Positions 1 through 62,945 of a stretch of 64,000 nt of DNA are shown piece by piece. Source of the stretch: an uncultured Candidatus Saccharibacteria bacterium (lineage in GTDB: Bacteria; Patescibacteriota; Saccharimonadia; Saccharimonadales; JAGQNJ01). The DNA is taken from positions 116,295 through 180,294 of the forward strand of contig OZ246406.1 in NCBI GenBank assembly GCA_965231045.1. Direction: 5' to 3'. The position numbers and the translations under genes were made by a program. Under the pieces are notes generated by a model, which ran no database searches, had not been told where the DNA came from, and saw only the letters and a program-made list of their open reading frames with translations. Position 1 is the stretch's first letter; every line of letters begins with the position of its first letter.

Positions 1-498
1 CCTGAGATTTCAGAAGCAACAGTGAGTTTACCCCTGATCAATCGTCGACCAATTGTATACATTCAGATCACACAGCCAGTTTTCTTCCTTAACAAAGGTA
101 ATGAAATTTTTGCTATTGATCAACAGGGAAGAGTAATTATGAAAGGCGATGCTAACCTCCCGAAATCTAATCTGATACACATTGAAGACCAAACATCACA
201 AGCCGTAGAAGTTAGTAAGCCGTTTTTGCCTGCTCGACAAGTAAAATTCATGCAAGACATAGCTGCTCAGTTAAAAAACAAGGGAATTACGGACATATCC
301 TTTGTCTTACCACCCTTGCCAGACGTCGTTTACGTCAAAATAAAAGATAGGCCCTATTTGGTAAAAATGACGTTCCAGAACGACCCTAGATTACAGGCAG
401 GCACCTTCTTAGCCGTTAAAGACAAGCTTGAAGCCGATAAGATTACCCCAGCTGAATATATAGATGTTCGTGTTGACGAACGAGCTTACTATAAGTAG
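1..498 (+). CDS. ftsQ: FtsQ/DivIB-like cell division protein, C-terminal part (5' end lies outside the window)
   Basis: Frame 1 is open from base 1, with no stop before the GTG at 22. The C-terminal domain ends in ...AEYIDVRVDERAYYK, which resembles FtsQ/DivIB C-termini. The call rests on motif memory only. Confidence 0.55.
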   Translation, partial: PEISEATVSLPLINRRPIVYIQITQPVFFLNKGNEIFAIDQQGRVIMKGDANLPKSNLIHIEDQTSQAVEVSKPFLPARQVKFMQDIAAQLKNKGITDISFVLPPLPDVVYVKIKDRPYLVKMTFQNDPRLQAGTFLAVKDKLEADKITPAEYIDVRVDERAYYK

Positions 499-639
499 TA
501 GGGTAGGCTAGGCTAAGCTAAGGAACAACTAGACTTATACCTAAAAGTTTATTGACAGCAATACACCCTTGGGCGCTCTGAGTTCATGTGATGAATAAGT
601 ACTGATAGATTAACAGCACTTCTTTCACTCTCCCCTAGA

Positions 640-655
640 TGTTCGCAAAATGTTC
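640..655 (+). repeat. Copy 1 of a perfect 16-nt direct repeat, TGTTCGCAAAATGTTC
   Basis: The exact 16-mer recurs at 1195-1210. Both copies lie in the same 730-bp non-coding gap. Confidence 0.9.
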
Positions 656-1194
656 ATACATCGCTAATACTGTATTTGCAGAAAAACATATAAAAATACC
701 AAAACCGTGAAAAAGCAAATTTTTCGTGAAATATAGGAAGTGAAGGGGAAATACAAAAAACAATATAAAGCGACATAAAAGTCAAATATTGCAAACACAT
801 CGGCTGTGGAAAACATATTGTGGTAAATTTTGCAAATAGCGACATTGAAGTACGAGAGTAATAAATAGCACATATGCGATTGTGGCACATAAGCATAGTT
901 AGTGCAGTAGTAAATTGAAAAGTCATGCACAATTAACTAAAAACATCAAAAACTCCCCTGTTAGGAAGGTATACACACTTAACCTTAAGAACTAATATAC
1001 GAGTCGCAAAATATACATTGTGCGACGTAAGATCTATGAACCAATATGTCGTCTGCTCCACATGTTTTGAAGCGTATTTTTGTATTTGTATTTTTCAAAT
1101 TTTGTTTTTGATTTTTATTTTCCTACTACTCTACTGTGTTTTCTGCCCAACACGTTAATACCATTATCCTGCTACTACCACTATGTATATATCG

Positions 1195-1224
1195 TGTTCG
1201 CAAAATGTTCGATATTGGTTAAAT
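1195..1224 (+). other. Copy 2 of the 16-nt repeat, extended into a dif-like candidate Xer site (TGTTCGCAAAA-TGTTCGAT-ATTGGTTAAAT)
   Basis: The left arm matches the E. coli dif XerC arm GGTGCGCATAA at 8 of 11 positions. The outer right arm GTTAAAT is identical to the dif XerD-arm end. The central region would be 8 nt rather than 6. The site lies at a convergent strand switch. Confidence 0.35.
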
Positions 1225-1230
1225 TGAGTT

Positions 1231-1935
1231 TTAGACTTTGATAGTCACTTTTTGTGTCGGAACATTAGGAATGGAACTTGGTGCTATTGAATATGCCGCG
1301 TAGCTGGCAATGAGCGCGCGCGTTGAAGTATCTAGCTTTCCTTGCCTATCGCTAGCCGATGTGGCGTGAAAAGCTGGATAAGGGTGATTAGGAAATATAA
1401 CCCAGTCGCCTGGCTCCTGTTCAACGTTGCTCATGTGTCTCGCCCAGACCGAAGGACCGGAGTTATCTAAGTGTTTGTGTCGAATTTGCCAATCTGTAAG
1501 TGCACTTACATCTTGTTCGCCTACTAAAAGAGTAGGGGTTTCTAGGCGTATACCATAAAAATAACGCTTTATACCGGCGTTGTTGTCTACCCTAGCACTG
1601 TAGGTTACTCCTATTCGGCTACTAGCATCGAAGTGAGGGTTGCTTAGCTGCTCACGATTGAAAACAGACCATAACCCATCGCGCATCTTCCAGCCTAGGT
1701 TAACGCCGTTTTTTTGCCACCAGTTTTCCACTATCTCTTTGGCATCAATTATTTCTGGGACTAGTTGGGGTAGCTGGTCTCTGTTGCGAGAAGTATTACC
1801 GCCATCCCAGGCCTTCCCTACTATTTCACCAATATTTCTAACTACTACAAGATCTAGACTTTGATCAGTCAAAGCCCTATGAGTAGCTTCTACGAGCTCT
1901 CCACGCCCTTCAAACTCTGCAACCCGGTTCCTCAT
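1231..1935 (-). CDS. Hypothetical protein, possibly a 2OG-Fe(II) oxygenase/cupin-like fold
   Basis: 234-aa ORF. An HxD motif (NPHFDAS) is followed by a distal His (PAFHATS) after a GDWVIFP strand, a pattern seen in 2OG-dioxygenase-like proteins. The assignment is weak. Confidence 0.5.
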   Translation of the reverse strand: MRNRVAEFEGRGELVEATHRALTDQSLDLVVVRNIGEIVGKAWDGGNTSRNRDQLPQLVPEIIDAKEIVENWWQKNGVNLGWKMRDGLWSVFNREQLSNPHFDASSRIGVTYSARVDNNAGIKRYFYGIRLETPTLLVGEQDVSALTDWQIRHKHLDNSGPSVWARHMSNVEQEPGDWVIFPNHPYPAFHATSASDRQGKLDTSTRALIASYAAYSIAPSSIPNVPTQKVTIKV

Positions 1936-1945
1936 CTCTTAGTCT

Positions 1946-2986
1946 TTAGTCTTCGGCGAGAGTGTAAGTAGCTTTGGCAACTCGCTTGAATTGCTTCTTG
2001 CCCTGTAAGTTTAAGAGAATAGTTGTCTCTTTAACATAACGGTTTTTAAGAACGCGCTTAACGATTTCATCACGATGTAGTGGCTCGCCGGCTTTTCGCA
2101 AGACATCAGAGATAACGTCGGCCACAGTTCCCTTCTTATAGCCCCACTCTTTTAGGGCGTAAATACCACGACCAACCAGCACGAAACGAGAATCTTTAAT
2201 CAACTCGTTATGAATTGCTTGGGTTGTTACATCTTTACGCTTGAATTCAGATTTCTTGATAGAAGCTGCAATTTCAGAGAAGTGCATGTGTTTGCCGTTC
2301 TCGTAAAGAATAACGTAGATTTTGTCGCGAATGTTCTTAGGATTGACCATTGGCCACTTGATAAGCCCCCAGCGACCGTTTAAGTGAGCTAGCTGCTTTG
2401 ATGTGCTGGCAAGTGCCGCTACCTCTTTAGGATCAGTGTGCTTAACGGCTTCAGCAACTTTATCGATTGAAGTTGGCTCACCAATCTTCTTAACAGCATC
2501 AATTACCTGGCCTGCAGCATCTTTTAGCGACTTTTCGTTGTAAGCATCAGCAAGACCAACACTCAAGTAGAAAAAGTCGTTTTCATCAATGACAACCAAC
2601 TTTGGAACCAGTTGGCTGAGGAATGATACACGTGCCTGATCCAAACGTGAATTTTCAGAGGTTAAACGGGCTGCAAGTTCACTCACCCGCCCTGCTTTAC
2701 CCATATCTGTTACTTCTTCGACAAATTTTGTCTCGATATCAGTAATATGCGGCAAGTTACCCTCAGAAGCTTGAGCTTTGAGTCGTGAAACAACGGCTTT
2801 TTCTAGCTGGCGAACTCGCTCACGAGTAATGCCAAGCAACTCCCCTATCTGTTCTAGTGTTTCTTTGCGGTCGAATAAGCCAAAACGTCGAGACACGATT
2901 TCTCGTTCTCGTTCCTTGTCGATAGTCTCTAAAATATCGTTTACGTATTTTTCTACTGAGACGGTGGTTTTCTGGTCTTGAGCCAT
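1946..2986 (-). CDS. Sigma-70 region-4 HTH domain protein with a C-terminal winged-helix (HARE-HTH-like) region
   Basis: The N-terminus SRRFGLFDRKETLEQIGELLGITRERVRQLEKAVVSRLK is a classic sigma region 4.2 HTH. No region 2 is visible. The C-terminus DEIVKRVLKN...KRVAKATYTLAE resembles HARE-HTH. Confidence 0.6.
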   Translation of the reverse strand: MAQDQKTTVSVEKYVNDILETIDKEREREIVSRRFGLFDRKETLEQIGELLGITRERVRQLEKAVVSRLKAQASEGNLPHITDIETKFVEEVTDMGKAGRVSELAARLTSENSRLDQARVSFLSQLVPKLVVIDENDFFYLSVGLADAYNEKSLKDAAGQVIDAVKKIGEPTSIDKVAEAVKHTDPKEVAALASTSKQLAHLNGRWGLIKWPMVNPKNIRDKIYVILYENGKHMHFSEIAASIKKSEFKRKDVTTQAIHNELIKDSRFVLVGRGIYALKEWGYKKGTVADVISDVLRKAGEPLHRDEIVKRVLKNRYVKETTILLNLQGKKQFKRVAKATYTLAED

Positions 2987-3170
2987 TAATTCTTCTCTTT
3001 CTTGCGCAATTATATCAGGTTGATTAATATAATTATAAAACTTCCACTGCTAAAAGTCAAACATATATTGTTATGAACTTATTGTAGCACAAAATGGCCT
3101 ATTCTGCGGGTGTATTGCCTGCCAATATTACAACAAAATATCTATCGACAGATGACAACCTGTGGGTAAC

Positions 3171-3581
3171 CTAGCTTTGGTGGTTGGCCGTGTAGTAGTT
3201 AAGATAGGCCAATGTATTTCTGCTTCCATAGTCGCCTCGACTTTTGACAGTTACCGCATCAGACCCAAAAACTTCAGTTATCGAGTCAAGTGAGGTCCTT
3301 GATATGATGCAGGCAGTAATTAATTCAGCTTGTACTTCTTCTGCCAAACCAAGGGCTGATCTAAGAAGTAATTTCCCAAGTCCCTTTCTTGGCACTGCAG
3401 AATAATACATCTCAATATCAAAAATGTCAGTTACATTGTCAAAGCTTGCCTCAAGAAATCCAAGCTGATGATCCAATTCGACAAAATAACCAATAATATC
3501 ATTGACGTCTCGTTTAACATGCACGCCTACTTGCGCCAATGATTCCATAGGGACTAAAGCCATAAGGTAATATAATACCAC
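3171..3581 (-). CDS. GNAT-like acetyltransferase (putative)
   Basis: 136-aa ORF. The segment PRKGLGKLLLRSAL resembles the acetyl-CoA binding motif A (R/Q-x-x-G-x-G/A). The true start may be an internal Met. Confidence 0.4.
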   Translation of the reverse strand: MVLYYLMALVPMESLAQVGVHVKRDVNDIIGYFVELDHQLGFLEASFDNVTDIFDIEMYYSAVPRKGLGKLLLRSALGLAEEVQAELITACIISRTSLDSITEVFGSDAVTVKSRGDYGSRNTLAYLNYYTANHQS

Positions 3582-3604
3582 ATTTAAAGCGTTTTGGCAA
3601 TATA

Positions 3605-5890
3605 TTATTGTTTTTTGCGGGGGAAACGGCGGCCCTTGCCTTTGGCAGGTGCCTCATCAAGAAGTTTTTGAGCGTCTTTTTCGGTTAACTTCTTAGGATC
3701 CTGTTCCTTTGGAATCTTAGCATTCTTTTTGCCATCTGTTACGTACGGGCCGTACATGCCGTTTAACACCTTAATTTTACCGAAATCAGCAATGTTCTTC
3801 TTGGCTTCTTTGTCTAATTTCTCTTTATAAAGTTTACGTGCCTCGGACTCTTTAACAGTGAATGGGTCGAGATCTTTAATGGAAACAAAAATCTTCTCAA
3901 CCTGAATATATGGACCAAAGCGACCAATATTCGCAGTTATCTCTTTGCCATCTTCAGTTTTGCCAACTACTCGAGGTAGTTTAAACATTTCAAGCGCTTC
4001 TTTTAGGGTTACGGTCTCAAGCTTGGCCCCGTCAGGTAACGGAGCAAATTTAGGCTTTTCTTCGTCCTCGGCTTCACCGATTTGGAGCATTGGGCCATAG
4101 CGCCCGTATCTAGCTATAACTGGTTTGCCCGTCTTAGGATCTTTGCCAAGTTCTCGAGCCTGTGAGGCCTCTTCTCGGCTGGCACCTTCGGCTTTGCCAA
4201 TCATCGGGTGAAATAGCTTGTAGAAGCCCTTTATGTAGTCCTGCCAGGCTTGCTTGCCTTCTTCGACATCGTCAAATTTCTTCTCGGCGTCCGCCGTGAA
4301 GTCATAATCGAGAATATCACTGAAGTATTTTAATAAGAAATCGGTGGTAACTAAAGCAACAGAGGTCGGTAGAAGTTTATTTTGATCCTTCCCCACTACT
4401 TGGGTTACTTCATCAGTTGTCACATCCTTGCCCTTTAGCTTCAATACGGTGATCTTACGTTCTTCACCTTCGACATCGCCCTTTTCGACGTAGCCTCGAT
4501 CTTGAATTGTACTAATTGTTGGCGCATAGGTACTTGGCCGGCCAATGCCTAACTCCTCGAGCTTCTTAACCAGAGCGGCTTCAGAGTAGCGGGCTGCTGG
4601 TTTGGTAAATATTTGAGTGGCTAAGATTTCATTGGCAGTTAGTTTTTGCCCCTCTGATAATGGTGGCAAAATAGTGTCCTTGAGGCTATTGTCATAAACC
4701 TTCAAAAAACCATCAAATTTGAGGACTTCACCCTTAGCAACAAAATGCTCTTTGCGGGTACTAACTACGATTTTAGCTTCAGTTTTTTCTGTTTGGGCTG
4801 GTGCCATTTGACTAGCAACTGCACGTTGCCAAATGAGTTTATATAGTCGTTGTTCTTGCGGTGTACTGCCAGCGTTAAGCTTTGTAACATCAGTTGGTCG
4901 AATAGCCTCGTGTGCTTCTTGAGCGCTGGCTGACTTGGTTTTATACTGACGAACTTGATGATATTTGTCACCATAGTTTTTCTTTATATATTCACCAAAG
5001 GTACTGATGGCCAAACTTGATAAATTGGTGCTATCCGTACGCATGTAAGTAATATGACCGTTCTCGTATAATCCTTGGGCAAGACGCATGGTCTGGCGAA
5101 CAGAATTACCAATTTTACGCGATGCTTCTTGTTGGAGCGTACTAGTTGTAAACGGCGCGCTTGGATTTCGACTACCTGGTTTTTGATCAACGCTTTTGAC
5201 AGTAAAAGTAGCCGCCATGCAGTCGTCTAAGAATTTTTGGGCGGTTGATTCGTCCTTGAGTTTATCGGCAAGTTCGGCTGGCACTGTATCTTTGCCACTG
5301 TTAAATTCAGCTGTTACCTTATAACTACTTTCAGCATCGTGAGCTGCAATTTCGCGCTCTCGCTCAACAATTAACCGAACCGCAACTGATTGAACGCGCC
5401 CAGCGCTTAGTCCAGTTTGGACTTTCTTCCAAAGGATTGGCGAAAGTTCATATCCAACCAATCTGTCTAGAACTCGTCGGGCTTGCTGAGCATCGACTAA
5501 GTTTAGATCAACTGTCCGTGGGGTTTTAATAGCGTTTTCAATCGCCGATTTGGTGATTTCATGGAACACAATACGCTTGGTTTTCTTGGGGTCTAATTTG
5601 AGTGCAGAACAGAGATGCCAAGCAATGGCCTCTCCTTCACGATCTTCATCACTTGCTAACCAGACTTCTTTGTCTTTAGCAGCTTTTTTAAGTTCACTAA
5701 TTACTTTGGTTTTATCGGGGCTAATAGCATATGTAGGCTCAAAATTATTATCAATATCAATGTTTAGACCTTTTTTGGGAAGGTCTCGGACATGCCCAAA
5801 GCTACTTTTAACCAAGAAATCTTTTCCTAAATACTTCTCAATTGTCTTTGCTTTTGCTGGGCTCTCAACGATTACTAAATTTTTTGCCAT
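3605..5890 (-). CDS. topA: DNA topoisomerase I
   Basis: 761 aa. It has an N-terminal TOPRIM domain (LVIVESPAKAKTIEKYLG ... ASDEDREGEAIAWH), the active-site region YITYMRTDS, and C-terminal Topo-C repeats (GRYGPMLQ, GRFGPYIQ, NGMYGPYVTDG) in place of zinc ribbons. Confidence 0.97.
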   Translation of the reverse strand: MAKNLVIVESPAKAKTIEKYLGKDFLVKSSFGHVRDLPKKGLNIDIDNNFEPTYAISPDKTKVISELKKAAKDKEVWLASDEDREGEAIAWHLCSALKLDPKKTKRIVFHEITKSAIENAIKTPRTVDLNLVDAQQARRVLDRLVGYELSPILWKKVQTGLSAGRVQSVAVRLIVEREREIAAHDAESSYKVTAEFNSGKDTVPAELADKLKDESTAQKFLDDCMAATFTVKSVDQKPGSRNPSAPFTTSTLQQEASRKIGNSVRQTMRLAQGLYENGHITYMRTDSTNLSSLAISTFGEYIKKNYGDKYHQVRQYKTKSASAQEAHEAIRPTDVTKLNAGSTPQEQRLYKLIWQRAVASQMAPAQTEKTEAKIVVSTRKEHFVAKGEVLKFDGFLKVYDNSLKDTILPPLSEGQKLTANEILATQIFTKPAARYSEAALVKKLEELGIGRPSTYAPTISTIQDRGYVEKGDVEGEERKITVLKLKGKDVTTDEVTQVVGKDQNKLLPTSVALVTTDFLLKYFSDILDYDFTADAEKKFDDVEEGKQAWQDYIKGFYKLFHPMIGKAEGASREEASQARELGKDPKTGKPVIARYGRYGPMLQIGEAEDEEKPKFAPLPDGAKLETVTLKEALEMFKLPRVVGKTEDGKEITANIGRFGPYIQVEKIFVSIKDLDPFTVKESEARKLYKEKLDKEAKKNIADFGKIKVLNGMYGPYVTDGKKNAKIPKEQDPKKLTEKDAQKLLDEAPAKGKGRRFPRKKQ

Positions 5891-5955
5891 TTCGCTATAG
5901 TTTATCAGATTAGTTGCAAAGCTCGATACTACGGGATTTTTTTATCAAATGCAAA

Positions 5956-6810
5956 TTAGTTTTTTGCCCACTTATTATTGCCAAGGGCTTTTATTCTTCC
6001 GGTTATCTCAAGCATAGTAAGAGTTTGATTAAAAAGTGTGGGACTTAATTTACTCCTAGTAAGCAGATCTGATCCATCGCTGATGTTTTGGTTTAGAAGT
6101 TGTAAAATTATCTGTTCTTCTTGATTGTTGGCGATCAGTTCATCTGTGATTTCTGTAGACTTAATATTGAGGCAGTCAAAGATGTCCTGCGTGTCCGTAA
6201 CGGGCGTCGCCCCCGTTTTTATTAGGTTATTCGTTCCCTGGCTCATCTGACTAGTAATGTTGCCCGGTACCGCCAAAACTGTCTTTCCCTGTTCCAGAGC
6301 AAAATTCACAGTGTGCAGTGTCCCGCTCTTTATAGCCGACTCTGTTACAAGCAATGCATCCCCAAGTCCAGCAACTAATCTGTTACGAGCAATAAAGTTG
6401 GTTTTATAGGGTTCACTGCCATCTGGGTATTCACTAACAAGCGCCCCGCCCTTCTCGATTATTTCTCGTGCAAGTTGTGTATGTGCGCGAGGATAAACCT
6501 GATCCAAGCCTGATGGCAGCACAGCGATAGTAAGACCTCCAACAGATAAGGCTGCCCTATGAGCAATACTATCAACACCAAAAGCCAGCCCGCTAATTAT
6601 GACCACCCCAGCTTGGGCTGCTTCACGGACTAATTGCTCGGTTACGGCTTTGCCGTAAGGAGTGACCTTGCGACTGCCCACCACCGTTAAACAAGGTCTT
6701 TTAAGTAAGCTGTCTAGTTCACCTATAACAAACAATTCCCTCGGAGGTGAAGGAATTGTCTGTAATTTGGCCGGTAAACCTAAGCTTTTGAGCTTATGCT
6801 TTTTTACCAT
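5956..6810 (-). CDS. dprA: DNA processing protein DprA/Smf
   Basis: 284 aa. Rossmann-like DprA core with VVGSRKVTPYG, ISGLAFGVDSIAHRAAL and LVTESAIKSGTLHT. Confidence 0.93.
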   Translation of the reverse strand: MVKKHKLKSLGLPAKLQTIPSPPRELFVIGELDSLLKRPCLTVVGSRKVTPYGKAVTEQLVREAAQAGVVIISGLAFGVDSIAHRAALSVGGLTIAVLPSGLDQVYPRAHTQLAREIIEKGGALVSEYPDGSEPYKTNFIARNRLVAGLGDALLVTESAIKSGTLHTVNFALEQGKTVLAVPGNITSQMSQGTNNLIKTGATPVTDTQDIFDCLNIKSTEITDELIANNQEEQIILQLLNQNISDGSDLLTRSKLSPTLFNQTLTMLEITGRIKALGNNKWAKN

Positions 6811-6844
6811 TAGTTTTAATATACCACAATTTTATTTTTTAGTA

Positions 6845-6873
6845 TTGACATAACGTAACATTCTTGCTAAAAT
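6845..6873 (+). promoter_or_regulatory. Sigma70-type promoter: TTGACA, 17-nt spacer, TGcTAAAAT (extended -10)
   Basis: TTGACA at 6845-6850 and TAAAAT at 6868-6873, with a TG at -15/-14. No ORF follows; the structured RNA candidate does. Confidence 0.55.
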
Positions 6874-6879
6874 TGCAAC

Positions 6880-7205
6880 TCGTAAGTCCGCTTAAGCGGT
6901 TTCTTACGCACCTTTATCCCCCATTCTAACCTCTCAAGAAGTAATTCTTGGGAATCGTTAGGTTGTTTTAGAGCGCGCTAGTAAGTTGTTACCCTCCACT
7001 TACTCTTAGCATCTCCTTTATTGGAAACGCTCTAAAACAGACTAACCCCTTTAACTACCCGGTTTTTCAATAGCGAGTACGCCAGTATGGACACTTGTCC
7101 GGCACAGGTCTTTACGTGGAGTTTGACCCAGATGCTTCGCTCGTGGTGGGTTGAAGGGTGTAATAGGCCTCAAGTGGTGCCCACCCCCTCTTGAGGTCTT
7201 TTATA
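6880..7205 (+). ncRNA. Unclassified structured RNA candidate (~325 nt)
   Basis: No ORF on either strand. The region is bracketed by a promoter and a terminator. Visible helices are a hairpin at 6881-6908, a 9-bp stem with a GUAA tetraloop at 6932-6953, a 19-bp helix (6957-6975 pairing with 7028-7046, one mismatch and one G-U) enclosing a nested hairpin at 6977-7010, and a GGAC-ACUU-GUCC hairpin near 7100. Confidence 0.5.
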
Positions 7206-7208
7206 TTT
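7166..7208 (+). terminator. Intrinsic terminator of the RNA candidate
   Basis: GGCCTCAAG (7166-7174) pairs with CTTGAGGTC (7190-7198) and is followed by TTTTATATTT. A T-run follows the hairpin only on the + strand. Confidence 0.5.
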
Positions 7209-7292
7209 GTCCTCATTTTATACACACCTCTGTTGACAGCTGGATGTATTAAACATACCATTTAGTCATAAACATAAGCAGGATAAGTAAAC

Positions 7293-8066
7293 ATGAAAAA
7301 ATTAGACCAAAGAGGCTCCCATGCGCTGGTAGTCGTTTTAATTGTTGTAGTGGTTGCCGTTGTTGGTGCCGTCGGGTGGTATGTGTTTAATAAGCAAAAG
7401 AAAAGCACTAACGGGTCTGTAACAGATTTAGTTAAACAGTCGGCGACTAAGTGTGACTCCGAAGATAAGGATATTTGTAAGTTTTTTGCTAGCTGGAAAG
7501 ATAATAAATACTACTCGGTTGATACAACGACCACAGCTGCTGGTCAGACCTCAACAATGAAAATGCAGTACGTAGCAACAGATAAATATCACTTTGTTAC
7601 TACTGGCGAAGGTGCCATGGAAATAATTACCATCGGCAACGATACCTATACAAAGTCTGGTGATACTTGGTATAAGCAGACCCAGAAAAAGGACGATACT
7701 ACAACAAAGCTTAAGGACGAAACTACAACTGACTTTAAGGAACCAACAACAGATCAGGCGTCAACACAGGCACCTACCTATAAGCTTATTGGTAAAGAAG
7801 CTTGCGGCAAGCTTACTTGTTTCAAATACCAAGTGGTAGACCCTAATGCCAAAGATACTACTGAATATATATGGTTTGATACAAAAGATTACCAATTACG
7901 CAAAGAAAGCACTCAGACTGGCGACACTAAGAGTGAATCAACTTTCAGCTATGACAAAGTCGAAATCAACGTCCCTTCACCTGTAAAAGAGCTTGGTCCA
8001 AACCAAGTTGTTGTACCAGGACAAGGTGTTGTTGATCTGCCAAGCGCAGCTGATGTTACGCAGTAA
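7293..8066 (+). CDS. Membrane-anchored or secreted hypothetical protein, Thr-rich
   Basis: 257 aa with an N-terminal TM/signal anchor (ALVVVLIVVVVAVVGAVGWYVF). It has its own TTGACA-17-TACCAT promoter-like pair at 7233-7261. Confidence 0.6.
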   Translation: MKKLDQRGSHALVVVLIVVVVAVVGAVGWYVFNKQKKSTNGSVTDLVKQSATKCDSEDKDICKFFASWKDNKYYSVDTTTTAAGQTSTMKMQYVATDKYHFVTTGEGAMEIITIGNDTYTKSGDTWYKQTQKKDDTTTKLKDETTTDFKEPTTDQASTQAPTYKLIGKEACGKLTCFKYQVVDPNAKDTTEYIWFDTKDYQLRKESTQTGDTKSESTFSYDKVEINVPSPVKELGPNQVVVPGQGVVDLPSAADVTQ

Positions 8067-8090
8067 AGTCTATACGCAGTAAAGTCTATA
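8059..8090 (+). repeat. Perfect tandem duplication, 2 x 16 nt (CGCAGTAAAGTCTATA)
   Basis: Unit at 8059-8074 repeated at 8075-8090. The first copy contains the stop codon of the 7293-8066 gene. Confidence 0.9.
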
Positions 8091-8097
8091 AGTCTAA

Positions 8098-8736
8098 TCA
8101 AACAATGAATGAGCGGGTTTCAACAACCAGCTCATTCTTGTATATGTAATCAGTCAATATATTAATTGTTTCTCTTTGGAGCTTAGAAAACTGATCTCGT
8201 TCCTCTTTTGAAAACTTGGCCAACACAAAGTCGGCACTGTCAATTTTATCGCTTAATTCGTTTCGAATCCCCACACGTACTCGATTAAAATTTTCACCAA
8301 TATGTTGGATTACTGATTTAATACCGTTATTACCTGCTGCTCCGCCGCCAATACGGGTTCGAATCTGTCCAAATGGAACATCTAGCTCATCATGAACCAC
8401 AAGTGTCTGTTCGGGGATAATCTTGTAAAAGCCTTGTACGGCCTGTACGGCCTTGCCGCTGTTGTTCATGAGTGTCGTGGGCTTTATGGCGATTACGCGT
8501 GTATCTCCTAATCTGAGGCTTGTAATGTGGCTGGAGAGGTCTTTTTTTTCGTGCCAGGCCGGAAACTCCTGTTGCTTGGTAAAGGCGTCTATAAGCTCAA
8601 AGCCAATGTTATGCCTTGTGCCTTCAAACTCTTTACCAATATTTCCTAAGCCAACTAGTAAAATGGTTTTCTCGGAACCTAAGGTAAATAAGGGCGAATG
8701 AGTCCCTGTTTCATTTTTCTTAACGAATAAACCCAT
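8098..8736 (-). CDS. pth: Peptidyl-tRNA hydrolase
   Basis: LLVGLGNIGKEFEGTRHNIGF is the canonical Pth N-terminal motif. About 24 extra N-terminal residues mean the start is uncertain. Confidence 0.92.
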   Translation of the reverse strand: MGLFVKKNETGTHSPLFTLGSEKTILLVGLGNIGKEFEGTRHNIGFELIDAFTKQQEFPAWHEKKDLSSHITSLRLGDTRVIAIKPTTLMNNSGKAVQAVQGFYKIIPEQTLVVHDELDVPFGQIRTRIGGGAAGNNGIKSVIQHIGENFNRVRVGIRNELSDKIDSADFVLAKFSKEERDQFSKLQRETINILTDYIYKNELVVETRSFIV

Positions 8737-8749
8737 GAATATTAGTGTA

Positions 8750-10063
8750 TCAACTTTTTTCGATGAACCAGAACTTTATCGGTGTTCCGATAAGGTCATA
8801 TTTTTCGCGTAGACTGCGCTCCATAAAGCGCTTATAACTCCAGTGCATTAGCTTAGTATGTGAGCCAAACACTTTGAAGCTTGGTGTTGGGTTGTCATCT
8901 TCCTGAACTATATAGCGTAGCTTAGGCATGGTGTTTTTAAGCCCAGCTGGTGGGTGGGCATCGATAACTGTTTTAAGCCAACGGTTTAATTCTGGGGTAG
9001 CAATTTTTTGCTTACGTCGCTTAGATATTTCGAGCACAAGGTCGAATAGTTTGGCTACGTTTTGGCCGGTAACTGAGCTAGTAAAAATCAGTGGTGCCCA
9101 TGGTACAAAGATAAAATTATGTTGTATTTGAGGTGCCAGTTGATCACGAGTGAAGGCATCCTTATCTAGAGAATCCCATTTACTAACGACCAGTACCAGT
9201 CCCTTCCCTGACTCTTTAATCATGCCGGCAATTTTTTGATCTAGCTGAACATTGAGTTCATTGGCATCCATAAGTAAAAAACAGATGTCGGCCTGCTCGA
9301 TAGCGCTAAGGCTGCGTATGACGCTGAACTTCTCTACCCCCTGCTCTATCTTGCCACTGCGACGGATACCAGCCGTGTCCATAAGCTCAATCTCTTGCCC
9401 ATTGTATTTAACGACAGTTCGGTTAATATCACGTGTTGTTCCGGCCTTATCGGCCACGATAGCCTGCTGCTTTTTAGCTAAAGTGTTAAACAGATGTGAT
9501 TTACCTACGTTTGGTCGACCGAGCAACGCTACGCGAATACGGTTATCATCTTCTTTTAGCTGTTGTTTTGGAATATCATCAACGACTTTATCTAGTAGCT
9601 CGTCAATACCCCGATTTTGTGAAGCGGTGGTTAGAAAGATATCTTTTATGCCAAGTCGGCGAAAATCATCGACGGTAGCTTTGGGCGCTTTATCGGCTTT
9701 GTTCACGACTAAGATAACTGGCTTCTTGCTTTTAAGGGCAAGCTTGGCGACTCGACGATCTTCTTCGGTGATTGCTACATTTGCCTCTATGACAACCCAG
9801 ATAATATCCGCACTATCAGCAGCTTGAGTTATTTGTTCTTGAATAGTGAATTCAAAGTCGTCCTCTGGGTCTTTCATCCCGGCTGTGTCAACAAGCCAAA
9901 AATCATGATGACTCCAGGTGGCTTTGGCTACAATGCTGTCTCTGGTTGTACCAGGCTCATTAGCCACAATTGCCTCCCGCCTACGCAGGACAGAATTAAA
10001 AAGGCTCGATTTACCAACATTGGCTCGGCCCACAATTGCAACGATCGGAAGTTTGTTATTCAT
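8750..10063 (-). CDS. der: Ribosome-associated GTPase Der/EngA
   Basis: Two tandem GTPase domains (GRANVGKSSLFN...DTAG and GRPNVGKSHLFN...DTAG, each with NKxD/SKWD) plus a C-terminal KH-like domain. Confidence 0.96.
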   Translation of the reverse strand: MNNKLPIVAIVGRANVGKSSLFNSVLRRREAIVANEPGTTRDSIVAKATWSHHDFWLVDTAGMKDPEDDFEFTIQEQITQAADSADIIWVVIEANVAITEEDRRVAKLALKSKKPVILVVNKADKAPKATVDDFRRLGIKDIFLTTASQNRGIDELLDKVVDDIPKQQLKEDDNRIRVALLGRPNVGKSHLFNTLAKKQQAIVADKAGTTRDINRTVVKYNGQEIELMDTAGIRRSGKIEQGVEKFSVIRSLSAIEQADICFLLMDANELNVQLDQKIAGMIKESGKGLVLVVSKWDSLDKDAFTRDQLAPQIQHNFIFVPWAPLIFTSSVTGQNVAKLFDLVLEISKRRKQKIATPELNRWLKTVIDAHPPAGLKNTMPKLRYIVQEDDNPTPSFKVFGSHTKLMHWSYKRFMERSLREKYDLIGTPIKFWFIEKS

Positions 10064-10110
10064 TTGAGATTATTATAACAGAGGTAGAGGCGCTTGACAA
10101 CGCATAATTT

Positions 10111-13618: not shown

Positions 13619-13721
13619 AATTGCTTACGGTTATTATCGCCGTTTTTTGTATCTGTTGCAACCTCTGGCAAAACCTTAACAGATATGATAAGATTCGGAA
13701 GTTCAAAATTATGTCTGACGA

Positions 13722-13796
13722 GGCCTCTTCGTCTAACGGTTAGGACACCAGGTTCTCATCCTGGCAATAGGGGTTCGATTCCCCTAGAGGTCACCA
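13722..13796 (+). tRNA. tRNA-Glu (anticodon CUC), CCA encoded
   Basis: Manual cloverleaf: acceptor GGCCTCT/AGAGGTC, anticodon stem CCAGG/CCTGG with loop TTCTCAT, T-arm GGGGTTCGATTCCCC, discriminator A, then CCA. Confidence 0.93.
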
Positions 13797-13804
13797 ATTT
13801 TGTT

Positions 13805-14473
13805 ATGCTAGATCATCATATACAACGAGCGATAGTTTACCGCCTGGCACTTAGCCACGAACTACATTTTACTGAGTTAAAACCTGATCAAATCGAGAAT
13901 AAGCTATTCACCTATCATCTTCACAAAGTTGAAAAAGCTGGGTATGTAAAAAAGGATAGTAACGGTCTTTATACACTAACACCGGAAGGTCGCCGGCTTG
14001 GGATTCGCGTACTCCAAAGTCAGCAAGCTCTAATTGACCAGCCAGAGTCAGTGCTATTTTTAGTAATTCGTCGCAAGTCGGATAATGCCTGGCTTTTGTA
14101 TAAAAGAAAAACCCACCCCCTTATTGATCGAGTCGGCTTTATGCACACAACGCCAAACGCCACTGAGGAGTCTATTGAGACGGCCAAAACGGCATGTAAG
14201 GCAGCTACCGGCCTAGACTGTACGTTCAAAGTCTTAGGCGGTGGATATTTTAGAGTCTATGACAAAGATGAGCTAGAGAGTTTTACGCACTTTACGCTTC
14301 TTGTCTGTGAAGATGCCACAGGTGATCTTGTCCAGAATGACGAATATGCTGATTATTATTGGGAGCAAGAGCCAGATTTTCTTGGTGAATCTATGCTCCC
14401 AAACATGCCGACCCTTGCCGAACTGTATAGGGCTGGAAAACTCTTCTTTATCGAAAAGACTTTGCATATTTAA
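13805..14473 (+). CDS. Winged-helix domain followed by a Nudix-fold-like protein (degenerate Nudix box)
   Basis: The tracked ORF starts at 13685 but overlaps the tRNA, so I take the ATG at 13805 as the start. The N-terminus QRAIVYRLAL...HLHKVEKAGYVKK is wHTH-like. The C-terminus GFMHTTPNATEESIETAKTACKAATGL occupies the Nudix-box position but lacks the REx2EE signature. Confidence 0.5.
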   Translation: MLDHHIQRAIVYRLALSHELHFTELKPDQIENKLFTYHLHKVEKAGYVKKDSNGLYTLTPEGRRLGIRVLQSQQALIDQPESVLFLVIRRKSDNAWLLYKRKTHPLIDRVGFMHTTPNATEESIETAKTACKAATGLDCTFKVLGGGYFRVYDKDELESFTHFTLLVCEDATGDLVQNDEYADYYWEQEPDFLGESMLPNMPTLAELYRAGKLFFIEKTLHI

Positions 14474-15303: not shown

Positions 15304-16455
15304 TTAAGCAGCTATTTTTAGGTAGTCTAGATATTCTTCCATGGGCCACATATCATCCATCACACCAAGTTGTTCAGCTTTAACTTCAACCTTGGCTGGC
15401 GACAGAGTCCCTTCTGAGTCGGCGACTAATCTTCTCACGATGACTTCTGTGTCTTTAGAGGACAACTCAATAAGTGATGATGCTGTCATGCCTGACTGCA
15501 TTGCAGAAACAAGCTTGTATTTAGCTACTCTGCGAATAAATTCTGTCGGTTGTTCTGTATCGTCTAAAGATTCCACAAGTTTTATTGGGAGTTGACCTTT
15601 ATTAATTTCTGAAAGGTATTCTGCGCAAGTTCTGCGTTGAGTCAATTTTTCTACTTCACTACGAATTGTATGCTCTGTAGTAATTTGCTCTTTGTATTTT
15701 GATAACGTGCCAAAATGGTTAACTATTGATCTAGTTGATGGCCCGCGTTTTCGTTTTGATAATTCATCAAAAACATCCCTAGTTAATTTTAGCTCCGGGT
15801 TCGCTTTGATTACTCGAACGCCATACTCGATATAATCCTCTTCCGCCCAGTCATTGATGTTCGGGAACCCTAACAATTCCTGTAAGGTGTCAACTCCGCC
15901 AACACGTCGCCTAATGTATGCGGCGCTAGGTCCTTTACCATTTTTGAACCAACGTTGGAAATCTGCTGTGGTAGGTTTTTTGCCATGTAATGCTCTGGCC
16001 ACTCTTCGCCCGTACTCTACAAAATCCCTGGTGCCCCACTCGCTATAGCGGCCACGAGCATAGCTATTATTTTCTCCTATGGCATCTTGAAATTGCCATA
16101 ATTTACCACCAAATTTGCCAGCTAGACTTTTTTGATATGGCCCCAACCCAAGTCTATAAGCACTTTCAATAACTGCTTCAGTTACATGTCTATCTTTGTC
16201 ATCGCTTTTTATCAAACCAGAAAGCCACTTGCCGTAAGCGACACAATCCTCTGCGGACCACTTGTTACGCCCCATCCCTTTGATGGCCGTACTTTCTGGA
16301 ATGATATCAAGATTATCTATAGCATCTAAAACGGGCACAATATCCCTTTGGTCATGACCAGAGTCTATGGCATCAGCAAGTGCTAATTCACCAATATACA
16401 GATCACCACTTAATACGTGGATGTATGTTTCTGGAGTACGTGCCTCAACACTCAT
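15304..16455 (-). CDS. Protein with three HEAR-like (homing-endonuclease-associated) repeats; no nuclease motif seen
   Basis: There are three modules of roughly 60 aa: KWSAEDCVAYGKWL...GPYQKSLAGKFGG, EWGTRDFVEYGRRV...GPSAAYIRRRVGG and DWAEEDYIEYGVRV...GPSTRSIVNHFGT. Confidence 0.6.
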   Translation of the reverse strand: MSVEARTPETYIHVLSGDLYIGELALADAIDSGHDQRDIVPVLDAIDNLDIIPESTAIKGMGRNKWSAEDCVAYGKWLSGLIKSDDKDRHVTEAVIESAYRLGLGPYQKSLAGKFGGKLWQFQDAIGENNSYARGRYSEWGTRDFVEYGRRVARALHGKKPTTADFQRWFKNGKGPSAAYIRRRVGGVDTLQELLGFPNINDWAEEDYIEYGVRVIKANPELKLTRDVFDELSKRKRGPSTRSIVNHFGTLSKYKEQITTEHTIRSEVEKLTQRRTCAEYLSEINKGQLPIKLVESLDDTEQPTEFIRRVAKYKLVSAMQSGMTASSLIELSSKDTEVIVRRLVADSEGTLSPAKVEVKAEQLGVMDDMWPMEEYLDYLKIAA

Positions 16456-38213: not shown

Positions 38214-41200
38214 ATGAGTGTTGTACGTGTCATTGCCAAAAAAACTAGAACACACGTCAAAAAAATACGAAAAAAGACGCGACCTCTATTAGTCTCTCTT
38301 AATAAATCTCTCAAGAAAAATCTAAAAATACTGGCAAAACAGGTAAAAAAAATCACTATTGTTGGCGCCCTAACTTTGCACAGATTGGCCAAGTTTACAC
38401 ATCACCACGTAGCTACAAGGCCACATCAACACCTATCTAATAAATACAAATGGTACCGCGATTGGCATGAATGGCCGCACTCAAAGCGCGTACATGCTAT
38501 TGCACTAAGCATGTATATTCTTTTCATCGCGTCTTTGATCATATCGAGCTATAGGCTGACATTTGCTTCTGATTTGAACAGTACTTGGGATTTTTCAACA
38601 CCATCAAACTACACTTACGACAATGGTATTGAGCTTAACGGTAGCCTATCAAGGCTAAAAGCTCAAAACTACAGTAGTGATGCTAATACGTCGGCGCTAT
38701 ATCATCTTGATGAATCAAACGGCACGGCAGCTAGTGATTCATCTTCAAACAACAATACGGCAACTACTTCTGGATCACCAACTTTTGGTACGGGCAATCT
38801 AAACAATGCCTTAAGTTTTAACGGTACTACACAGAATGCGAGTGCGCCAGACTCCACTAGCCTATCGTTAAGCCAACAAAACTCGCTTGAAGCCTGGACC
38901 AAGTTTAACAGTAGTTTTAGTGCTGGGTCACATGACCAAAAGCAAGGAATTCTAGACAAAGGTGCCTACAAACTTTACTACGACCAAGAGACCGGAAAAG
39001 TTACCTATGAGCTAGCCAACAGTACGGCAACTGCATGGTCACAACAAGCTGGTAACGATATAAACGGGAGTTGGGATCTAAATGGTAAATTTGCGGTAAA
39101 TGCTCAACAGTATGTAAACGGTAAACTCTACGTTGGTTTAGGTAATGCTGTTGGTGATGCTGAAGTGTGGAGTTGGGACGGCACTAGCTGGTCACAAGTC
39201 GGCGGTGACGGGAAAAACAGTAGCTGGGCAGATCAAACTTATGAAAACGTCGATACATTAAATTTCAATGGGAACACTTTGTATGCTGGGCTTGGCTCAA
39301 GTACAGGTGATGCCGAAGTATGGAGTTGTGATACATCAACAAGCTGTGCAACCTGGACGAAAATCGGTGGAGACGGAATTAACTCGGGATGGGCTGTTAA
39401 CACCTATGAAGACGTGACAAGTATGACGGTAATGAGCGGCACTCTATATGTTGGACTGGGGACGACAGCCAATGATGCTGAAGTTTGGAGATGGAATGGA
39501 TCGGCCTGGACGAAAATCGGTGGGGATAGCATCAATAGCGGCTGGACGACTAATTATGAATCTGTGTATAGCCTGACAAATGATGGAACCAATGTTTACG
39601 CTGGGCTTGGCTTGACTGCCGGTGATGCTGAAGTTTGGAAATGGAACGGATCTGCCTGGTCTAAAATCGGTGGTGATGCTGTCAACTCTAGCTGGGCAGA
39701 TGTTACTTATGAAGAAGTGATAAGCATGCGTTACTTCGGAGGTAATCTATACGCTGGAATTGGATTGACTGCTGGCGACGCTGAAGTTTGGAGTTGGAAT
39801 GGGACGACATGGACTAAAATTGGGGGTGATACTCTTAACTCATCTTGGGATAGCGTTTCATATGAAGGCGTTTATAGCTTAGCCGATGATGGCACTAACC
39901 TCTATGCCGGGCTTGGCTCAACGGCTGGGGATAATGAAGTCTGGAAATGGAACGGATCGGCGTGGTCTAAAATCGGTGGTGATGCTGTAAATAGTGGATT
40001 CACGAACACACACACGATTGTTCAGTCGCTAGTGTATGCCAACAGTACTCTGTACGCTGGGCTTCAGGCTACAGCCAATAACTCTGAAGTCTGGTCATTT
40101 AACGGTACTTCCTGGACCCGTATAGGTGGTGGCGGAATTAATAAAAGCTGGGGCTATTTCAACCTGCAAAACGTTGAGAGTATGACCAGGTCCGGCGACT
40201 ACCTTTATGCGGGCACCGGTTATACCGTAGCCGGGAATGCTCTGATTTGGAGATTTGATGGTACTAGCTGGCAGCTAGTGGGCGGTCAAGGCGTTAATAG
40301 TAGCTGGTCGGCCACCACATACGAAGATGTTATGAGTATGACTAGTTTTGGCGGCAATCTGTACGTTGGCTTAGGTACAACCGCTAATGACGCTGAAGTT
40401 TGGAAATATAATGGGAGTACTTGGACGCAGATTGGGGGTGATAGTCTTAACAGTGGCTGGGGTGCAGGTTATGAAGAGGTCTACTCTATGGCTGTCTATG
40501 GTGGAAATCTTTATGCTGGATTGGGAAACTCGGCCAATGATGCTGAAGTCTGGAAATGGAACGGCACAACTTGGACAAAAATTGGGGGCGATAGCCTTAA
40601 CAGTGGCTGGACAACTAATTTTGAAAGAGTAAGTAGCTTGGCGGTATATGGAGGAGATTTGTATGCAGGTCTTGGTGCTTCAACTACCGACGCTGAAGTC
40701 TGGAAATGGAACGGTTCGGTTTGGAGCAAGATTGGCGGTGACGGTGTTAGCTCTAGCTGGAATGTCAATTATGAACAAGTTGAGACTTTGTCGGTATATA
40801 ATGGCAAGCTTTATGCGGGTCTTGGAAATAGCACTGCAGATGCAGAAGTTTGGGAGTATAACGGTACGGCATGGTCGCAAATTGGGGGTGACGGTCTTAA
40901 CAGTGGCTGGGCAGATGGTCAGTACGAGCAAGTAAAATCAATAGCCGTCTATAATGGCAAGCTTTATGTTGGTCTTGGAAACACGGCTGGAGATGGTGAG
41001 GTTTGGGTTTATGAAAATGGTGTTTGGGCCAAGAGTGCTGGTGGTGGCACCAATTCAAGTTGGGTAGCTAATACTATAGAAACTGTACAGACTTTGTGCG
41101 TATTCCGCGGGAAACTTTACGCCGGCCTTGGAAATACTGCCAACTCAGATGCCCAAGTTTGGTCTCTTGGCAATAATGGTTTTCTGCAATCTGCTTCTAC

Positions 41201-51619: not shown

Positions 51620-52015
51620 CTATACTTTGGCTTCGTTGCCATGTACGAGCAATGCGTACAAGATCACACCATCAAGCACGGCTGCCACAATGCACCATAT
51701 TGGGTATGCTGGCAAAAATACTAAGTTTACAGCCAACATAACTGCTGTTGATATAATCCCAACTACCCGGCCCCACATTCCGCCGTGCAAGAGTGAAAAT
51801 CCTGCAGTCAAAAGGACAACCGCTAGGATTAAGTGTACCCAGCCCCAGGCTGTGAAGTTAAGTACTGTTAATGATTTTGAAGTAACTACATAGAAGTTAC
51901 TATTTGTTAGAGCGACAATTCCCATAAATCCTTGGAAAACTGCGCGTACGACCATTAGTATACCGGCAAAGTATACCCAGCCAACCCACCCGGTTGTGTT
52001 GTTCTGTGTAGGCAT
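51620..52015 (-). CDS. DUF7144-like membrane protein
   Basis: TGWVGWVYFAGILM...WGWVHLILAVVLLTAGFSLL...MWGRVVGII...PAYPIWCIV is the family pattern, from memory. Confidence 0.68.
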   Translation of the reverse strand: MPTQNNTTGWVGWVYFAGILMVVRAVFQGFMGIVALTNSNFYVVTSKSLTVLNFTAWGWVHLILAVVLLTAGFSLLHGGMWGRVVGIISTAVMLAVNLVFLPAYPIWCIVAAVLDGVILYALLVHGNEAKV

Positions 52016-62171: not shown

Positions 62172-62945
62172 ATGCGTATCACCGCAATTTTGGCGGGGGT
62201 GTTTTTAAGTGCTGCCGTATTTTTGGCAGCCAGTTCGCCGGTGCACGCCGAAGCACCACAACAATTAGCTCTCGGCAATTCAATAAATATTAGTAATGAA
62301 CAGATTGTTCTGACTGCGGTCAATACACAGCTGCAAGTCGCACAAAAAACGTCTGATCAAAAGTCGGATCCAGTTTTGCATACGGTCGTCGAAAATGAGA
62401 CGCTGACGAGTATTGCTAGCCAATATCAAACAACTTGGCAAAGATTGTTTGCCAAGAATACAAATCTTAGCGACCCAAACGTTATTAGTGTCGGGGATGT
62501 TCTTGTGATACCAAAAAATGATGAGCAGTTGACCGAACGAGTTGTGCAAGAGCCACAACCGATAGTTGAAGAGCCGTCAGTACCAAAGCCAGCGTCTGCA
62601 CCTAAGCAATCTAAGCCAGTCGTCACTGCTAGTGCCCCGCGCGGGGGTTCCGGGGGTAATACATACTCTCCTGGATACTGCACCTGGTACGTTAAGAATC
62701 GTCGACCAGACTTGCCTAATAATTTGGGTAATGCAAATACTTGGGTAGCTAGAGCTGCTGCACAAGGCATACCTACGGGTAGTTCACCAAGAGCAGGTGC
62801 TATTGGTCAACAAGGAATGCACGTTGTCTACGTTGAGTCTGTAAATGGTGACGGTACAGTTACGATTAGCGAGATGAATCACGCTGGTTGGAATGTAGTT
62901 GATACGCGTACGGTGCCAGCCAGCTATTTCAACTACATATACTAG
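62172..62945 (+). CDS. Secreted LysM plus CHAP peptidoglycan hydrolase
   Basis: Signal peptide, LysM domain (HTVVENETLTSIASQY...VGDVLVIP), and CHAP domain (GYCTWYV...GMHVVYVESV...). Confidence 0.88.
   Translation: MRITAILAGVFLSAAVFLAASSPVHAEAPQQLALGNSINISNEQIVLTAVNTQLQVAQKTSDQKSDPVLHTVVENETLTSIASQYQTTWQRLFAKNTNLSDPNVISVGDVLVIPKNDEQLTERVVQEPQPIVEEPSVPKPASAPKQSKPVVTASAPRGGSGGNTYSPGYCTWYVKNRRPDLPNNLGNANTWVARAAAQGIPTGSSPRAGAIGQQGMHVVYVESVNGDGTVTISEMNHAGWNVVDTRTVPASYFNYIY

Follow-up and report, generated by a model that had tools for sequence, protein, structure and literature searches.

A conserved structured RNA gene predicted next to dprA in Saccharimonadia

The raiA motif, OLE, ROOL and GOLLD are bacterial RNAs of several hundred nucleotides (nt) that fold into multi-helix junctions, keep invariant nucleotides in loops and junctions, carry variable peripheral hairpins, are transcribed on their own and are restricted to particular lineages; the RNA described here is like them in all these respects. 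The raiA motif adjoins competence genes, and so does the present RNA, which lies beside dprA. RNAs of another type, RsaE/RoxS and RNAIII of Staphylococcus aureus, are riboregulators of Gram-positive bacteria that base-pair with G-rich ribosome-binding sites through their C-rich loops, terminator loops among them. We studied a 64-kb window, i.e. the whole stretch of 64,000 nt at positions 116,295–180,294 of contig OZ246406.1 (GenBank assembly GCA_965231045.1) from an uncultured Candidatus Saccharibacteria bacterium; all coordinates below are those of the window. The predicted gene at positions 6877–7202 of its plus strand is that of a stand-alone, single-copy, vertically inherited structured non-coding RNA, here about 325 nt long. 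A preliminary description of this place had proposed an orphan, independently transcribed, highly structured and possibly lineage-specific RNA. This proposal is borne out by 125 relatives, in which the promoter and terminator are conserved and the helices covary.

The genes around the RNA in the window are topA, dprA, pth and der. A gap of 482 bp (6811–7292) separates dprA (5956–6810, minus strand, Pfam DNA_processg_A) from an open reading frame (ORF) of 257 amino acids (aa), and only mechanical ORFs of at most 49 aa overlap this gap, in line with the ORF-free interval of about 480 bp noted earlier. The gap contains a complete unit (6845–7202) comprising the promoter, the RNA of about 325 nt, and a 12/13-bp terminator hairpin followed by a T-run. 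The promoter (6845–6873, plus strand) consists of the −35 box TTGACA (6845–6850), a 17-nt spacer and the extended −10 element TGcTAAAAT (6865–6873, with TG at 6865–6866 and TAAAAT at 6868–6873). With 11 matches out of 12 and the extended −10, it is the top σ70-like site between positions 6000 and 8200; the predicted transcription start is near 6877–6882. A second promoter-like site (7233–7261, 10 of 12 matches) stands ahead of the 257-aa ORF. Both promoter sites, as well as the 3' hairpin with its T-run (found at 7166–7202), had been recognized in the preliminary description. A simple terminator scan missed this hairpin, its loop limit being 8 nt versus the actual 9-nt loop, and the terminator is predicted by folding. 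The minimum free energy (MFE) of the plus strand is −115.6 kcal/mol (z = −6.0, none of 100 shuffles being equally stable), compared to z = −3.2 for the minus strand.

A DprA scan of species-representative genomes yielded 80 loci. The best matches all came from metagenome-assembled genomes of Saccharibacteria/Saccharimonadales, with DprA identity of only 48–65%. Using nhmmer with the intergenic DNA, the full-length element was found in about 30 Saccharimonadales genomes, always directly upstream of dprA and divergent from it. The alignment of the dprA-found loci served to derive a two-block pattern, TACCCTCCRC-N30-60-CNNRYTANNNCCTTTAA, with which metagenome contigs were scanned. The pattern matched at least 120 metagenome stretches, and no fewer than 118 of them proved to be full-length homologues, promoter included, with nhmmer E-values down to 1e-88. 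Two sequences, L190 (metagenome) and L201 (viral contig), were rejected as chance pattern matches. Following clustering at 92% identity, 125 distinct sequences remained; the length from the predicted start to the T-run varies among relatives from 267 to 523 nt with a median of 378 nt.

The transcription signals are retained across this set. The TGnTAnnnT element is kept in all 125 sequences, the exact TTGACA at 17 nt is present in 104 and offset by 1 nt in another 11, and at least five T occur within nine nt after the terminator stem in 122. A covariance model of the 5' domain of the family (R1) detects a single copy at each locus and likewise a single one in the window, and it has no match in dprA loci of other phyla, of other Candidate Phyla Radiation (CPR) lineages or of two more distant Saccharibacteria. 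The family is probably restricted to Saccharimonadia (Saccharibacteria/TM7). In the dprA locus of one distant Saccharibacterium (L046) the position of the RNA is taken by contiguous genes. In another more distant one (L040, 768–1233, minus strand) ORFs of 76 and 88 aa, HicB/HicA-like as judged by eye only, are located upstream of dprA.

In the typical arrangement topA and, usually, dprA are divergent from the RNA, whereas pth and der are convergent. Among the 83 loci with enough flanking sequence, convergent pth directly follows the terminator in 73, often at a distance of 0–50 nt. The upstream neighbour is dprA in 65 of these loci; in the remaining 18 it is missing and replaced by topA or another gene. 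The RNA is followed by the co-oriented 257-aa ORF only in the window and in one relative (L001). Since pth is convergent in most relatives, there is no gene to be led and the RNA is not a leader, as had been anticipated when the element was described as not simply a leader. We consider it almost certain that this is a real conserved structured RNA gene, and it very probably acts in trans rather than as a leader or another cis-regulatory element.

One homologue (7943–8370 of L202, positions 1–8444, IMG/VR IMGVR_UViG_3300049064_000004) is carried by a contig classified as viral. Directly upstream of it are genes for a RecT-like protein (a weak match below the Pfam cut-off), an FtsK/PD-(D/E)XK nuclease and two DNA methyltransferases, with no topA or dprA. 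Mobile elements are known to integrate at tRNA and tmRNA genes, and in L202 such an element may have integrated beside the RNA gene or into its flank.

Covariation in the 5' domain was assessed on a model alignment of 100 sequences against 500 shuffles and slid controls. Here 92% of alignment cells are paired and 237 cells carry changes on both sides versus 64 expected from the shuffles; none of the 500 shuffles reaches any observed measure, and the slid controls are only 29–46% paired. The domain starts with hairpin H1 (6881–6908), whose outer stem CGUAAG/CUUACG has 6 bp and whose inner stem has 4 bp, as paired by hand previously and reproduced in the MFE fold. Its sequence varies among relatives: the outer stem is 85% paired and has both-side changes at five of its six pairs. 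Then follows a conserved single-stranded segment CACCUUUAUCCCCCAUUCUAACC (6909–6931), which contains ACCUU (97–99% conserved), a C-run and an upstream CUAAC (6926–6930). The next hairpin, H2 (6932–6953), has a 9-bp stem and a GUAA loop in the window. The preliminary description was right about its presence, both in the sequence and in the MFE fold; in the family it is an optional insertion, found in 53 of the 100 relatives (12–164 nt, always a hairpin) and absent from 47. Large insertions were observed in homologues L110 (approximately 789–1115), L009 (approximately 2316–2974), L011 (183–525) and L007; H2 reaches 164 nt in L110, and the 5' domain of L009 and L011 is interrupted by approximately 170–190 extra nt.

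The centre of the 5' domain is a three-way junction (6957–7046), in which H3 and H4 enclose H5 and a weak, variable H6 (about 7014–7025). What had been described as a 19-bp helix (6957–6975 with 7028–7046) does exist in the window and covaries. Across the family it is two helices: H3, 5 bp (GUUAG 6957–6961 with CUAAC 7042–7046, 99.6% paired), and H4, 11 bp (6965–6975 with 7028–7038, 97% paired, both-side changes at nine of the 11 pairs). They are separated by a 3×3 internal loop that in the window partly pairs by chance. In other clades H4 is fully rewritten, e.g. from GUUUUAGAGCG/CGCUCUAAAAC to GCAUGCAACG/CGUUGCUUGC. The nested hairpin noticed earlier at 6977–7010 is present in the sequence and in the MFE fold, and within it lies H5 (6981–7003), with the stem 6981–6986/6998–7003 and a nearly invariant 11-nt loop UGUUACCCUCC (6987–6997); the inner four stem pairs are 91–99% paired and covary. 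GUUAG can pair with the downstream CUAAC in 98 of the 100 relatives, or, as the preliminary description had pointed out, with the upstream CUAAC, which is possible in 90. In one relative (L154) GUUAG is changed to GUUAA with compensation in both possible CUAAC partners. This dual pairing may reflect a switch or an intermediate in folding.

A long-range helix, H7 (7047–7158), closes the 3' domain; it is formed by CCCUUUAACU (7047–7056) and GGUUGAAGGG (7149–7158). In the family it reads CCCUUUAAC(U) paired with (G)GUUGAAGGG, and nine of its pairs are 100% paired in the 125 relatives, two positions exchanging CG/GC/AU and a third UG/UA. H7 lies partly inside the patterns used as alignment anchors; its covarying positions are free of anchors. 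The region enclosed by H7 is a four-way junction in the window (7072–7141), consisting of P8 (AGCGA(G) 7072–7077 with (U)UCGCU 7136–7141), P8a (7078–7087), P8b (7089–7092/7097–7100) and P8c (7102–7110/7125–7135). In a 21-sequence alignment of the main clade, 94% of the cells of this subdomain are paired and 23 pairs have both-side changes, which is matched by none of 500 shuffles. Other subclades carry different, smaller modules inside H7. Directly 5' of the H7 3' strand is a G-rich element GUGGUGGG (7143–7150, family consensus GGGGUGGG) whose complement is the terminator loop CCCACCC; about 110 of the 125 relatives have GGUGGG.

The intrinsic terminator (7166–7202) has the stem 7166–7177/7187–7198, a 9-nt loop UGCCCACCC (7178–7186) and the T-run 7199–7202. 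The stem holds a conserved pyrimidine–pyrimidine mismatch (U7175/U7189) at the third pair. In the relatives the 13-bp stem is 94–100% paired everywhere except for this mismatch, and it covaries at nine positions. The sequence GCCCACCC is found in the terminator of all 125; it was used as an alignment anchor and never to find sequences. In most sequences GGGUGGG and the terminator loop CCCACCC, which never varies, are perfectly complementary. Two further tertiary contacts were considered and rejected. A kissing interaction of the H5 loop (CUCCAC) with GUGGAG in P8c fits the window and a few relatives; it is unconserved and does no better than shuffles. No covariation was seen for pairing of the 5' GCACC with GGUGU after H7.

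The resulting fold consists of a 5' domain (H1, the single strand, and the H3/H4 junction with H5) and a 3' domain closed by H7 and containing a variable inner module and the terminator. Every major helix is backed by covariation: H1, H3/H4, H5, H7, the four-way 3' subdomain and the terminator stem. Thus both conservation and covariation, which the preliminary description had suggested checking in relatives, were found. The G–U pairs fit only the plus strand (for instance, the first pair of H3 is GC in 84 sequences and GU in 16), being A–C on the opposite strand, and hence the plus strand is the functional one. Spacing between the invariant blocks has no bias towards multiples of three and no reading frame is conserved across the family, so the conservation is not due to coding.

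The pattern of conservation is uneven. Three unpaired C-rich elements are almost unchanged, namely the 5' element CACCUUAUACCCCC, the H5 loop UGUUACCCUCC and the terminator loop UGCCCACCC. The junction nucleotides, H7 and the G-rich element GGGGUGGG are also constant, giving about 50 near-invariant nucleotides overall. The variable parts (H2, H6 and the inside of H7) are peripheral. Because the unpaired C-rich elements and junctions are fixed, while the stems covary freely and the peripheral hairpins are dispensable, we propose that a rigid scaffold would present the C-rich elements as a functional interface. The RNA would be abundant, stable and trans-acting, a riboregulator or a scaffold of a ribonucleoprotein (RNP) rather than a cis element. 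Its partner could be a G-rich RNA, i.e. Shine-Dalgarno (SD)-like GGAGG(G)U leaders or the GGGUGGG of the same or another molecule, or else a dedicated protein. This partner mechanism is put forward tentatively, as one that is more likely to be wrong than right. The explanation as a whole is somewhat favoured, this grade being a compromise between its levels (gene, trans action and C-rich mechanism).

Several observations weigh against this explanation. The ends of the RNA and its abundance are predictions. The metagenome search pattern contained UACCCUCC, in the form UACCCUCC(A/G)C, and CCUUUAA, and their invariance in the metagenome set is partly by construction; UACCCUCC(A/G)C is invariant also in the approximately 30 genome loci located via dprA alone. 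The GGGUGGG:CCCACCC pseudoknot is only possible, the G-rich side varying in about 10% of sequences without compensation. A systematic search for an internal partner of the H5 loop did not surpass shuffled controls (median p 0.54). Complements of the C-rich elements were searched for in the window, which gave no convincing targets and identified no partner. Only 15 of the 51 ORFs of the window have an SD-like motif, and the other 36 look leaderless, leaving a small pool of SD targets. Moreover, the junctions and even helix sequences (H7) are conserved, which is more typical of an RNP, a ribozyme or a ligand-binding RNA than of a base-pairing small RNA (sRNA). Since the size of the RNA, the conservation of its helix sequences and the scarcity of SD motifs all speak against a simple sRNA, an alternative to be taken seriously is that it serves as an RNP scaffold, as a ribozyme or sensor, or as a self-assembling RNA. 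In a further, rather improbable version the RNA would belong to an essential stable class peculiar to Saccharimonadia, being either the RNA subunit of a lineage-specific RNP or catalytic or self-assembling, with the three invariant C-rich (CCA-containing) loops as its active or binding surface. To give two speculative examples, it might imitate the 3' ends of tRNAs or the anti-Shine-Dalgarno sequence, with translation being largely leaderless.

Some matches to the loops were observed in the window. The 7-nt sequence GGAGGGU is the complement of ACCCUCC from the invariant H5 loop. Among the few SD-led genes, two have an extended SD AAGGAGGGUU before the start, the DUF7144 gene (51620–52015, minus strand) and a gene for a LysM-CHAP cell-wall hydrolase (62172–62945, plus strand); the match of their leaders to the H5 loop may be a coincidence. 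The similarity of the terminator loop to the 3' end of tRNA-Leu (UGCCCACC) was also treated as coincidental, given that the eight matches in the window are fewer than the about 14 expected by chance according to a back-of-envelope estimate (9-mer, one mismatch, both strands) made without a shuffle control.

The RNA family is new with respect to Rfam 15 and the searched literature and has no detectable relative. With gathering scores, the 4,227 families of Rfam 15 match only three tRNAs in the whole window. At E ≤ 10, cmscan of positions 6750–7300 gave unrelated noise only (ST7-AS1, Bp1_738, RCNMV), and at E ≤ 5 a scan of 20 homologues gave four unrelated weak hits, none of them consistent. This covers the families whose comparison had been suggested in the preliminary description (RNase P, tmRNA, 6S, signal recognition particle (SRP) RNA, ROOL, GOLLD, raiA, HEARO and OLE), none of which has a significant match. 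In particular, the covariance models of OLE, ROOL, GOLLD, HEARO and raiA have no hit in this region at E ≤ 10 and no consistent hit in the 20 homologues. The same is true of RsaE (RF01820), which has no match in the region or in the 20 homologues; the three conserved unpaired C-rich elements, one of them in the terminator loop, are a feature of the RsaE/RoxS type, which we treat as a functional resemblance only. Group I introns in tRNA genes are common in Patescibacteria (PMC13011429), and a tRNA gene with such an intron was considered and rejected, since tRNA halves are absent and neither RF00028 nor ARAGORN gives a match. A search of full-text literature found no description of the RNA.

A very divergent universal housekeeping RNA (RNase P RNA, tmRNA, 6S or SRP RNA), the other option raised in the preliminary description, would have a similar size, strong promoter, single copy and deep conservation. 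Furthermore, some housekeeping RNAs may escape annotation in Saccharibacteria, given that only two non-coding RNAs are annotated in the genome announcement of a cultivated representative (PMC8830319). Nevertheless, this option gained no support from Rfam, ARAGORN or motif checks and is highly improbable. The RNase P models RF00010 and RF00011 (P1–P4 core, P4 pseudoknot) match neither the window, nor the region, nor the 20 homologues. The P4 strands (GGAAAGUCC ... ACAGAA..GGCUUA) are absent both from the window sequence and from the family consensus, the preliminary description having called the universal motifs of RNase P and tmRNA absent or out of order. The ends do not pair with each other as they do in P1, 6S and SRP RNA; a separate hairpin is formed at the 5' end, and the terminator hairpin stands at the 3' end. 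For tmRNA, RF00023 gives nothing in the window and one noise hit of 12.8 bits in one of the 20 homologues, ARAGORN, which also detects permuted forms, reports three tRNAs and no tmRNA in the window, and the acceptor stem, the T-arm GGUUCGA, the 3' CCA and the tag reading frame are lacking. 6S RNA (RF00013) has no match and is a rod with paired ends and a large central bubble, in contrast to the branched, two-domain fold with unpaired termini supported by covariation here. The SRP models RF00169 and RF01854 have no match, and the consensus contains no domain IV (helix 8) hairpin with its symmetric loop and GNAR tetraloop. It is likewise very unlikely that the element acts in cis, as a leader or riboswitch of the downstream gene or, via overlapping promoters or read-through in antisense, as a regulator of the divergent dprA/topA or the convergent pth. 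Such a role would be consistent with the RNA promoter standing back to back with the leaderless-type promoter of dprA (TGgTATATT, 7 nt before the ATG), and with the A-tract and U-tract flanking the terminator hairpin, which in many loci is 0–50 nt from the pth stop and may terminate transcription on both strands. However, the upstream, co-oriented position that a leader would keep across relatives is not observed, the next gene being convergent nearly everywhere outside the window and L001. The RNA also retains its promoter in loci where topA, a response regulator or a mobile element stands upstream, and 270 nt or more of covarying structure far exceed the needs of a promoter or terminator.

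A new large structured RNA with a self-contained function, e.g. a ribozyme, a ligand sensor or an RNA-only multimer in which the C-rich loops make tertiary contacts within or between molecules (such as CCCACCC:GGGUGGG), is an alternative that we rate as doubtful. An invariant core with variable peripheral hairpins is the pattern of RNase P, group I introns and ornate RNAs, and here, too, invariance reaches from junctions and loops into helix sequences, the peripheral hairpins being present in some relatives only. The complementarity of GGGUGGG to the invariant terminator loop in most sequences fits this explanation, and the conservation of both mutually exclusive CUAAC partners of GUUAG hints at a conformational switch. 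On the other hand, no pseudoknot is supported by covariation, no ribozyme or riboswitch model matches, and there is no co-oriented downstream gene to regulate. Finally, GUUUUAGAGC/GCUCUAAAAC resembles the repeat:anti-repeat duplex of Cas9, the H4 sequence of the window matching the start of the classical type II-A repeat over 10 nt. This could point to an RNA that serves a mobile or defence system as guide or scaffold (tracrRNA/sgRNA-like, omega RNA (HEARO) or a retron non-coding RNA), and the homologue on the IMG/VR contig beside RecT, FtsK-nuclease and methylase genes would agree with it. Yet the window lacks a CRISPR array and cas genes, the sequence is not repeated in it, the RNA occupies a fixed chromosomal position with one copy per locus, and neither HEARO nor any other Rfam family matches. 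As other clades have H4 strands of unrelated sequence that are again complementary, the likeness of GUUUUAGAGC to the Cas9 repeat is accidental. The CRISPR/tracrRNA reading is effectively refuted, and the guide RNA explanation in general is barely conceivable. A stable trans-acting RNA or RNP that would present C-rich elements on a structured scaffold is the explanation we would choose, with low confidence.

Other features of the window were noted around the RNA gene. Many of the 36 long ORFs lacking an SD-like motif have a TAnnnT −10-like hexamer 6–8 nt before the start codon, which suggests that most mRNAs encoded in the window are leaderless. Examples are TGgTATATT, 7 nt before the ATG of dprA (6811–6835), and TATAAT for der; other start regions covered include 8737–8761, 10064–10088 and the beginning of 15304–16455. 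It is this leaderless-type promoter of dprA that would place it back to back with the RNA promoter. The 257-aa ORF (7293–8066, plus strand) has an N-terminal hydrophobic segment and no Pfam match; both here and in L001 (52% identity) it is inserted between the RNA and pth. A 24-nt tandem repeat (7689–7741) is located inside this ORF, and 2.1 copies of a perfect 16-nt tandem repeat TACGCAGTAAAGTCTA (8057–8090) span its end and the spacer before convergent pth. An ORF of 2049 aa (38214–44363, plus strand) encodes laminin-G, fibronectin-III and purple-acid-phosphatase N-terminal-type domains, and its product is presumably a surface protein of the epibiont. A mechanical 262-aa ORF (13685–14473, plus strand) starts upstream of tRNA-Glu (13722–13796) and runs through it; if this is a real gene, its true start should be further downstream.

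Saccharibacteria are the best-studied members of the CPR, ultrasmall parasites with genomes below 1 Mb, in which intergenic space amounts to a few percent. Almost no regulatory RNAs are known in this group, and the present family may be of interest to specialists both in structured RNAs and in the CPR. According to a transcriptome paper on TM7x, this organism has no validated small RNAs (bioRxiv 10.1101/2022.03.25.485537). Across more than 120 divergent genomes this RNA of 270–520 nt has retained its promoter, its terminator, its fold and about 50 nearly invariant nucleotides, which makes it very improbable that it is dispensable. Large structured RNAs confined to a lineage are known in very few cases from any bacterium; it would join them and be the first one found for Saccharibacteria in the searched literature. 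If it were indeed an essential stable RNA, it would be comparable in rank to 6S, OLE or RNase P. What is new is the RNA family without a detectable relative; we claim newness for the family, not for the mechanism. Saccharibacteria can now be transformed and mutagenized (PMC10633639), and should a cultivated strain carry the RNA, genetic tools would allow a direct test of its role.

The relation of the RNA to described systems may be stated as follows. With T-box and riboswitch leaders it shares a complex fold ending in a terminator, GGUGGG upstream of this terminator and GUUAG with two alternative partners. It differs from them by the lack of a co-oriented downstream gene in most genomes and of an Rfam match. 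Furthermore, the complementary segment is in the loop of the terminator and not in its stem, and hence there is no classical antiterminator. RNase P RNA, tmRNA, 6S and SRP RNA are similar to it in the strong constitutive-type promoter, single copy, fixed position, deep conservation and comparable size, whereas the present RNA has none of the tested defining motifs or architectures. Compared with the raiA motif, OLE, ROOL and GOLLD, it is distinguished by three unpaired elements rich in C, by a core that includes a terminator hairpin whose loop is invariant, and by having been found so far in Saccharimonadia only. RsaE is three times smaller, and in the present RNA the conservation extends beyond seed motifs to junctions and helices, in a genome segment where most genes have no SD motif. 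What it has in common with RsaE/RoxS and with the loops of S. aureus RNAIII are several unpaired C-rich motifs, including the terminator loop, along with its own promoter and terminator. To these common features belongs CCUCC of the H5 loop, which is exactly complementary to the Shine-Dalgarno core GGAGG.

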